NCBI RefSeq assembly: GCF_050920415.1
Contig: NZ_CP169309.1
Origin: Escherichia coli
Lineage (GTDB): Bacteria; Pseudomonadota; Gammaproteobacteria; Enterobacterales; Enterobacteriaceae
Strand: one strand, 5' to 3'
DNA: 64,000 nucleotides
Part shown: piece by piece, positions 42,237 to 64,000 of the stretch
Position numbering within the stretch: the first letter of the stretch is position 1
Layout of the letters: every line of letters starts with the position of its first letter
Notes under the pieces: model-generated
What the model saw: only the letters and a program-made list of their open reading frames with translations
The model's database searches: none
Told to the model about the DNA's origin: nothing
Program-made: the position numbers and the translations under genes

Positions 42237-42348
42237 CCCCGGCTAGACCGGGGTGCGCGAATACTGCGCCAACACCAGGGAAATCTTGGCTGCGCCGTAA
42301 ATTATTATGATGAGTTACAAGGGCACAGCACTGTTTTTCAGGCCGCAC
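42228..42348 (-). ncRNA. arcZ: ArcZ small RNA (Hfq-dependent), overlapping arcB 3' end in antisense
   Basis: Minus-strand sequence GTGCGGCCTGAAAAACAGTGCTGTGCCC...CCCCGGTCTAGCCGGGGTCATTTTTT recognised as ArcZ, including its 3' terminator; lies between arcB and elbB. Confidence 0.8.
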
Positions 42349-59437: not shown

Positions 59438-60063
<626 letters not shown>

Positions 60064-60088
60064 GTTTTTCGCGTCCCGGTAACGGATG

Positions 60089-60118
60089 AAAGCCCCGCAA
60101 CACGTTGCGGGGCTTTTT
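60089..60118 (+). terminator. Intrinsic terminator of rplU-rpmA
   Basis: AAAGCCCCGCAACACGTTGCGGGGCTTTTT. Confidence 0.9.
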
Positions 60119-60189
60119 ACATTCGATAACCGGTAAAAATTCGCATCGTGCGGCGTTAACTCGCAAATGCGTTTTGTAGGGAATACGGT

Positions 60190-61155: not shown

Positions 61156-62343
<1,188 letters not shown>

Positions 62344-62349
62344 TCAGCT

Positions 62350-62374
62350 AAACCCCGGCCATGTGCCGGGGTTT
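62350..62374. terminator. Bidirectional terminator between obgE and dacB
   Basis: AAACCCCGGCCATGTGCCGGGGTTT hairpin flanked by A/T. Confidence 0.85.
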
Positions 62375-62383
62375 CTCTTTAGA

Positions 62384-63817
62384 CTAATTATTCTGATAAA
62401 TATCTTTATACAAACGGCTTTCAAAACGCACTAACGGAATGCGGCGATTACGCTGAGCCGCGGGTTCTACCGCATAGCCAGAAAGATATTGTACAAACGC
62501 CATTCGTTGCCCGCTCGCTGTGGTAATGAATCCCGCCAGGTTATATACCCCCTGCAAAGAACCGGTTTTTGCTGAGACCTTTCCGTCCACGCCAGCCTGA
62601 TGCAGGCCCGCACGGTACTGCAAAGAGCCGTCATAGCCTGCCAGCGGCAGCATAGAGATAAAGTTAAGTTCATTGTCATGTTGGGCAATGTATTGCAGCA
62701 CCTGCATCATGGTGGCAGGTGCAATCAGGTTATGCCGCGAAAGCCCTGAACCATCGGCAATAATCGTGTTACCAATATCGATACCAGCTTGCTGACGCAG
62801 GATCTGACGTACGGCATCCGATCCGGCCCGCCATGTTCCGGGCACATTGAAGCGCGCATGGCCTATCATGCGGAAAACCGTATCGGCAATCATGTTGTCT
62901 GACTTTTTCAGCATAATCTTAAGCAGATCGTGCAACGGGGCCGACTGTTTACTGGCAACTACCGTTCCGGGTTCATTAACCTGAGTCTGGCGCAGTAGTG
63001 TTCCGCTCCAGGTGATACCTGCCTGTTTTAACTCATCTTTCAGAATTGCACCGGCATAGCTGGCTCCATCCTGTATGGCAAAAGCCAACGGGAGCGGCTC
63101 AGAACGTTGTGGCAGGCATCCGGTCAGCGTAAAGCGGTTCAGGTCGCCTGGCACCACATCCAGCTCGCAATATTGCGCTTCGGCAGAACCACGGGGGAGG
63201 GTGCGTACCTGGCTGAACATCGTAACAGGGTAATAAGATGCCACGCGTATAAAGGCCATATCACCGGGTTTTTGGGCACTGTAGAGCGAGACGGAGAAAC
63301 AGTTGCGGTCAACTATGGCGGCGGCAGGCGGAGCGCTAAAGCATTGTGTCATGTCATTCCACGGCCAGCCGGGGGCTTTATCGTGGCTGGCAAAAATGGA
63401 GGTGTCTATCAACACATTACCATCAATTTGGTTGACGCCAGATTTTTTCAAAGTCGTGACCATATTGCGAATATCCTGACGTTTTAACGTCGGATCGGCA
63501 CCAAATCGCGCCACTAAGTCACCCTTGAGTACGCCGTTTTCCACATTGCCTTTGGTTTCAAGCGTAGTGGTAAAACGAAAATCGGGGCCGAGTTGAATCA
63601 ACGCCGCCAGCGCAGTAATCACTTTCTGCGTACTCGCGGGCAACGCCATCTGCTGGCTGTGGTAATCAATAGCGGGGGCCGACGCGCCGACTTTTTGCAC
63701 CATCAGGGCAAGGTTGGCACCAGCGGGAAGTTGAGTAATGTACTCATCAACATTTGCGGCCTGAACACTGAACGCTATACAGCTGGTCAATCCGATGATA
63801 AATCTGGAAAATCGCAT
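62384..63817 (-). CDS. dacB: D-alanyl-D-alanine carboxypeptidase/endopeptidase PBP4
   Basis: 477-aa ORF with signal peptide MRFSRFIIGLTSCIAFSVQA and SxxK active site (STQK). Confidence 0.96.
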   Translation of the reverse strand: MRFSRFIIGLTSCIAFSVQAANVDEYITQLPAGANLALMVQKVGASAPAIDYHSQQMALPASTQKVITALAALIQLGPDFRFTTTLETKGNVENGVLKGDLVARFGADPTLKRQDIRNMVTTLKKSGVNQIDGNVLIDTSIFASHDKAPGWPWNDMTQCFSAPPAAAIVDRNCFSVSLYSAQKPGDMAFIRVASYYPVTMFSQVRTLPRGSAEAQYCELDVVPGDLNRFTLTGCLPQRSEPLPLAFAIQDGASYAGAILKDELKQAGITWSGTLLRQTQVNEPGTVVASKQSAPLHDLLKIMLKKSDNMIADTVFRMIGHARFNVPGTWRAGSDAVRQILRQQAGIDIGNTIIADGSGLSRHNLIAPATMMQVLQYIAQHDNELNFISMLPLAGYDGSLQYRAGLHQAGVDGKVSAKTGSLQGVYNLAGFITTASGQRMAFVQYLSGYAVEPAAQRNRRIPLVRFESRLYKDIYQNN

Positions 63818-63905
63818 AATCTCGCGCTAACAACCTGGAATCGAGCCGTCATACTACGGCGCAACGCCCTATAAAGTAAACGATGACCCTTCGGGAACTT
63901 CAGGG

Positions 63906-63970
63906 TAAAATGACTATCAAAATGTGAATTGTAGCTGACCTGGGACTTGTACCCGGGTCGGTATTTTTTT
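63906..63970 (+). ncRNA. Putative greA leader with intrinsic terminator (GraL-like short transcript)
   Basis: TAAAAT -10-like hexamer at 63906-63911; hairpin GACCTGGG-ACTTGTA-CCCGGGTC followed by T7 at 63964-63970, divergent from dacB, upstream of the expected greA start beyond the window. Confidence 0.4.
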
Positions 63971-64000
63971 GCTTCTGGTCCCGGTGAGGAGTTATGCCGG

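Follow-up and report, generated by a model that had tools for sequence, protein, structure and literature searches.

The end of the window, by which we mean the whole 64,000-nucleotide stretch of Escherichia coli DNA that was analysed, contains the dacB (PBP4) coding sequence on the minus strand (62384-63817), a 477-amino-acid ORF that carries the dacB annotation in identical E. coli records and is the divergent neighbour bounding an intergenic region that leads on the plus strand towards greA. Two complete E. coli chromosomes, among them NZ_CP169399.1, match the final 501 bases of the window at 100% identity, and the remaining 5423 matching records do so at 95-99%. The 182-bp intergenic part alone shows at least 99% identity in 5184 of the 5425 matching complete E. 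coli records. The annotated greA CDS in NZ_CP169399.1 starts at locus position 2566, equivalent to window coordinate 64065, on the same strand. This places the greA ATG 65 nt beyond the window end, with the same arrangement in MG1655. A short terminated leader ahead of greA, resembling GraL, had originally been predicted here as a tentative assignment, with the proviso that greA itself should appear on extension beyond position 64000, and this was borne out in the 100% identical E. coli record.

Using a scan with Rfam release 15 we obtained RF01769 ("Enterobacteria greA leader") as the sole strong match at this locus, at 63848-63969 (+), with a score of 127.5 bits and E = 3.9e-24, compared with a curated gathering score of 60 bits for this family. 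The match covers positions 1-124 of the 124 in the model and is not truncated, and a scan of the whole window agrees. GraL has been characterised in E. coli K-12 MG1655 (PMC2836576; PMC6829880), and the window equals the K-12 MG1655 sequence at every base from 63800 to 63985, which takes in the promoters, leader and terminator. The only difference from MG1655 within 63800-64000 is at 63986, which is G in the window and A in K-12, and this substitution sits in the read-through leader, 12 nt 3' of the longest GraL 3' end. With greA lying downstream, the RF01769 match and the identity to MG1655 all supporting the assignment, the region is almost certainly the E. coli greA promoter and leader encoding the small RNA GraL, an element that is already described and ordinary; we saw nothing in the sequence that speaks against this assignment. 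In the MG1655 RefSeq record (NC_000913.3 3327000-3331500) the interval from greA to dacB carries no annotation for GraL or the greA leader, and the intergenic match region is likewise without an annotated feature in other E. coli records.

The read-through 5' UTR of greA begins at 63975 and occupies the remainder of the window (63975-64000, +), with the greA ATG at 64065. An upstream ORF in this leader was also considered; it has an ATG at 63994 preceded by a Shine-Dalgarno-like GAGGAG, is 29 codons long, continues past the window end (locus L001, 2495-2584) and overlaps the greA start out of frame. We rejected it as coding because it is not conserved, with E. albertii having GTG at this position and a different ORF, and with either no ORF or unrelated ones in Citrobacter and other genera, and it is probably not a gene.

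Elsewhere in the window the ArcZ small RNA (RF00081) was detected at 42241-42348 (-), scoring 120.8 bits (gathering score 66); it is a known gene and unrelated to GraL. Three further matches score far below the gathering scores of their families and were rejected: Thr_leader and isrJ at 60029-60121, which align mainly to a terminator hairpin downstream of an 85-amino-acid ORF at 59806-60063, and rnk_pseudo at 62341-62423, which likewise is mainly the terminator hairpin in the obgE-dacB gap. Within the latter interval the convergent genes obgE (cgtA) and dacB are separated by 40 nt, and the perfect hairpin that lies in this gap, AAACCCCGGCC...GGCCGGGGTTT, is probably a bidirectional terminator.

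Overlapping promoters and transcription start sites

Published work describes two strong overlapping promoters for greA, with P1 dependent on sigma70 and P2, 11 bp further downstream, dependent on sigmaE (PMC2836576). The hexamer TAAAAT at 63906-63911 (+), which had been picked out as promoter-like, is present and is the -10 element of P1, with a mean majority frequency of 0.99 across 24 genera. Reading it as promoter-like was sound, with the refinement that TAAAAT belongs to P1 only and that a second, sigmaE promoter overlaps it. A consensus pattern scan reported ATGACC-17-TAAAAT with 9 of 12 matches, and ATGACC at 63883-63888 (+), with a mean majority frequency of 0.97 across 24 Enterobacterales, is a candidate -35 element of P1, given its spacing to the published start site. 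For P2, the -35 element GGAACTT (63894-63900, +) was read from the sequence 16 nt before the -10 element TCAAA (63917-63921, +; mean majority frequency 0.90 across 24 genera). The arrangement GGAACTT-16-TCAAA fits the sigmaE consensus, and GAACT is near-invariant in the 24-sequence Enterobacterales alignment described below. Overall, the promoter hexamers are conserved at 0.90-0.99 and the spacers at 0.67-0.69 across the 24 genera.

The greA AUG has been reported at +150 from P1 (PMC6829880, Fig. 1 legend), and as the greA ATG is at 64065, the P1 start (+1) falls at 63916 (+), the A of an AU. This position fits both the ApU-primed initiation at P1 and the location of +1 to +18 upstream of the hairpin. 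Likewise, the P2 start is 11 bp downstream of P1 and ApA-primed (PMC2836576), which corresponds to 63927 (+), the A of the AA at 63927-63928. The elements of both GraL promoters are thus identical in sequence to those in K-12, and the start sites placed by calculation precede the stem by 18 nt (P1) and 7 nt (P2). The distance from the end of TAAAAT to GACCTGGG in the hairpin is 25 nt, in line with the approximately 25 nt first noted.

Two additional primer-extension signals, P3 and P4, have been attributed to processing (PMC2836576). Past the end of the window, many Enterobacterales leaders carry a CAGGA(A/T) motif ~20-45 nt ahead of the greA ATG, in otherwise variable surroundings (L001 2540-2550 and equivalents in L002-L034), and this motif may be related to these processing signals of Potrykus et al.

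The leader terminator and its conservation

The hairpin and T7 run on which the original prediction was based are all present, with GACCTGGG at 63937-63944, CCCGGGTC at 63952-63959 and T7 at 63964-63970. The two arms do pair as proposed, but the full stem is longer and has 11 pairs, in which GCTGACCTGGG (63934-63944) is paired with CCCGGGTCGGT (63952-63962) around a 7-nt loop, ACTTGTA, followed by A T7 GC TT. These 11 pairs of the intrinsic terminator hairpin (63934-63962, +) comprise 7 G-C, 1 A-U and 3 G-U, and the pattern scan that gave the P1 elements also picked up this terminator, likewise with 11 pairs of which 7 are G-C. Its first stem base, 63934, is +19 counted from P1, and in the published description +1 to +18 precedes the hairpin, which is formed by +19 to +48 (PMC6829880). 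The GraL terminator has been described as intrinsic, with an 11-bp stem and then AU7GCU2 (PMC2836576), and the same combination is found here, with ATTTTTTTGCTT at 63963-63974 (+) being the published AU7GCU2 tract and zone of imprecise termination in which the GraL 3' ends lie. Chains of 49-59 nt from P1 (+1 at 63916) would have their 3' ends in the U7GCUU tract, at 63964-63974, and the longest P1 form of GraL would span 63916-63974 (+) by these derived coordinates, with P2 forms beginning at 63927; the sequence of this RNA is identical to MG1655. Short leader RNAs have been detected in vivo by northern blot, in K-12 only (PMC2836576).

Folding of the hairpin gave -18.6 kcal/mol (z = -4.79), a value that none of 200 dinucleotide-preserving shuffles reached. 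A 60-nt transcript covering 63916-63975 gave -21.4 kcal/mol (z = -4.55), again with 0/200 shuffles equal. The nascent RNA from the P1 start up to the 3' arm of the hairpin (63916-63951), on the other hand, folds at only -0.2 kcal/mol, which is less stable than all 200 of its shuffles, and the GraL 5' segment of 18 nt (+1 to +18; 63916-63933, +), which is needed for full GreA autoregulation (PMC6829880), is unstructured.

For a comparative analysis, one genome per species was searched with the GreA protein, which yielded 80 gammaproteobacterial loci. Of the loci tested, 23, all from Enterobacterales, had an RF01769 match ahead of greA, and we aligned these with the window to give 24 sequences, each of a different genus or species, onto which the Rfam structure was projected. 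In the terminator helix, 9 of the 11 pairs showed changes on both sides and 87.7% of cells were paired. Taking the RF01769 structure as a whole, 84% of cells were paired, against 25-42% when the 3' partners were slid by 1-3 columns. This covariation agrees with the published observation that pairing is kept by 17 of 18 substitutions in the stem among four species (PMC2836576). A stable G+C-rich hairpin, an adjoining T7 and a stem that is kept in evolution are together what is expected of an intrinsic (Rho-independent) terminator.

Terminator-like sites also arise in shuffled sequence, at a mean of 1.9 per 2 kb, and the element might in principle be a chance hairpin with a T-run, or else the terminator of a neighbouring gene. 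We consider either of these to be practically ruled out, as no shuffle folds equally well, the stem covaries across the 24 genera, and the element has been experimentally verified in identical sequence (PMC2836576). Furthermore, dacB begins here and does not end, and there is no upstream plus-strand gene that would need termination.

The upstream half of the RF01769 match

Positions 1-68 of the RF01769 model correspond to 63848-63915 in the window and lie before the mapped P1 start. The curated model therefore reaches well upstream of the mapped transcription start and into promoter-like sequence. If this part were transcribed, it could form an antiterminator that competes with the terminator upon a signal, as in a classical attenuator or riboswitch-like leader. 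The model does include helices 1-5, which were matched over their full length, 63848-63915 is highly conserved, and what appears to be the source paper of RF01769, judging from its matching names greA-leader and rnk-leader, states that there is a clear antiterminator structure (PMC2965389). However, in that study, by Naville and Gautheret in 2010, each candidate was taken to run from where the upstream gene ends as far as the terminator, start sites not being taken into account, and an antiterminator was drawn (PMC2965389). With the P1 start mapped at 63916, 63848-63915 falls outside both the P1 and the P2 transcripts, and the P3 and P4 signals, being attributed to processing (PMC2836576), do not alter this.

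The upstream helices also behave differently from the terminator in the 24-sequence alignment. Among the 15 pairs of helices 1-5, a change on both sides was seen in one cell, at one pair only, and such variation as occurs breaks pairs, for example at one position where 11 of the 24 sequences lack the pair. Folding of all 123 nt gave no unusual stability (z = -1.55), and we rejected the upstream helices as RNA structure, as they show no covariation and the variation observed disrupts their pairs. Likewise, when the real transcript was folded from +1 up to the 3' arm, no competing antiterminator fold was found, and with a nascent transcript that lacks structure the terminator is not gated by a competing RNA fold. 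On this evidence a signal-dependent antiterminator at this locus is very improbable.

The conservation of this stretch instead follows the hexamer, fixed-length variable spacer and hexamer order that is typical of promoters, with ATACTA (63851-56) at 0.98, a spacer of 18 nt and fixed length at 0.69, and AGTAAA (63875-80) at 1.00. In the reverse complement these read TTTACT-18-TAGTAT, which suggests a candidate minus-strand promoter for dacB. We think that 63848-63915, the 5' 55% of the RF01769 match, is probably best read from its sequence as promoter DNA and not as RNA structure, and on that reading the transcribed RNA makes up only the 3' 45% of the model. Whether the stretch is more specifically a compact divergent promoter block, with the candidate dacB promoter back to back with greA P1/P2, is to us an evenly balanced question. 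Only one substitution among the 24 genera falls in a 15-nt block, AAAGTAAACGATGAC (63873-63887); this near-invariance exceeds the need of promoter hexamers alone, and the block could be a binding site for a regulator shared by dacB and greA. No dacB transcript was detected under the conditions of Potrykus et al. (PMC2836576), and a literature search gave no dacB start site in the dacB-greA intergenic region, only an unrelated MarA study with the dacB upstream region as a negative control. Separately, GraL-like leader terminators ~30 nt upstream of greA in Pasteurellaceae, Aeromonas and Shewanella may be functional equivalents.

Proposed mechanism and published regulation

Our analysis contributes the sequence identity, position, fold, covariation and absence of a competing fold, and the start sites, sigma dependence, termination efficiency, autoregulation and trans effects are taken from the published papers. 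Combining these, transcription would start at P1 (+1 at 63916) or P2 (+1 at ~63927), and the nascent chain would carry an unstructured 5' segment of 18 nt (P1) or 7 nt (P2), followed by the 11-bp G+C-rich hairpin at 63934-63962 and AU7GCU2. This factor-independent terminator would release about two thirds of the chains over ~10 nt (~63964-63974), giving GraL chains of 49-59 nt from P1 and 37-47 nt from P2, and the remaining third would read through as greA mRNA, such that the leader would set greA output by partial termination. The published data on which these proportions are based show that about two thirds of transcripts terminate, with release spread over ~10 nt and insensitive to Gre factors (PMC2836576).

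The leader would in addition be needed in cis for the autorepression of greA in vivo, in which catalytically active GreA would increase termination together with a helper factor. It has been reported that deletion of greA derepresses a leader-lacZ fusion ~3-fold and that overproduction of GreA represses leader-lacZ, and that for this feedback the native promoter is dispensable but catalytically active GreA, +1 to +18 and the native hairpin sequence are all needed, with a scrambled +1 to +18 leading to weaker GreA-mediated repression (PMC6829880). GraL levels also go up with GreA levels (PMC6829880, Figure 5 legend). The effect of GreA on the leader was not reproduced in a purified system, which implies an additional factor, and the authors argue against Hfq, the Nus factors and sigmaE as this accessory factor (PMC6829880). 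Because the sequence is 100% identical, we infer that this strain would behave like K-12. GreA is a global transcription fidelity and anti-arrest factor, and the leader terminator would both set the amount of GreA and be the cis site of its autoregulation.

The released RNAs could, however, be inert by-products of a terminator that acts purely as a cis throttle on greA. This would be consistent with the 5' tail of only 18 nt, which is moderately conserved (0.65-0.75 across the 24 genera), with the widespread leader terminators upstream of greA, whose sequences differ between lineages, and with published experiments in which no direct target was found and GraL overproduced in trans had no effect on greA expression (PMC2836576). 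It is set against reports that overproduction of GraL alters more than 100 transcripts and affects fitness and that GraL has synthetic-lethal interactions (PMC2836576; PMC6829880), and against nudE, which is cited by way of PMC6829880 as a likely or proposed trans target. We regard inert by-products as the less probable reading, though one still worth weighing, and favour a leader that throttles greA and releases a GraL reported to act in trans as well.

Comparison with leader terminators of other Gre-family genes and with known systems

The 200 nt upstream of greA in 81 gammaproteobacterial loci were scanned for hairpins using a fold-based method, as a scan for perfect stems only missed several loci. 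A sense-strand hairpin plus U-tract was found in 47 of the 81 loci, compared with 4 of 81 when the antisense strand was scanned, and this count agrees with the published tendency of the greA/rnk family towards leader terminators (PMC2965389). The distance from the hairpin to the ATG was roughly 80-130 nt in Enterobacterales and ~26-36 nt in Pasteurellaceae, Aeromonas, Shewanella, Oceanisphaera and Alcanivorax.

In comparison with the known GraL/greA leader (PMC2836576; PMC6829880), the window is identical in sequence across P1, P2, the 18-nt 5' segment, the stem and the AU7GCU2 tail, has the same neighbours, with dacB divergent and greA downstream, and the same distances, with the AUG at +150 and the hairpin from +19, and there is no difference inside GraL itself. 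As the GraL leader was described in 2010 and extended in 2019, its recurrence in another E. coli genome adds nothing new, although it does illustrate that a leader-terminated small RNA is recognisable from raw sequence alone. The relation to RF01769 is less simple, since this model spans ~68 nt upstream of the mapped start and only its terminator helix covaries in the 24-genus alignment.

In three Pasteurellaceae loci a different family, RF02904 (Aggregatibacter sRNA 69, AaHKsRNA69), lies directly upstream of greA (L031 1337-1419, L026 1335-1416 and L029 1331-1412), with a hairpin plus U-tract 3' of it, ~30 nt before the greA ATG. RF02904 is like RF01769 in its position immediately upstream of greA, but it differs in being another sequence family, in that its match ends ~20 nt before the terminator-like hairpin, and in being absent from the window; RF02904 together with this hairpin may be a functional counterpart of GraL in Pasteurellaceae. 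Finally, the leaders of other genes for RNA polymerase secondary-channel factors, namely the rnk leaders (RF01772 and related families) and the greA leaders of bacilli, share with the leader described here an intrinsic terminator between the promoter and a Gre-family gene, and their short product has been suggested also to act in trans (PMC2965389), but they form families separate from RF01769.
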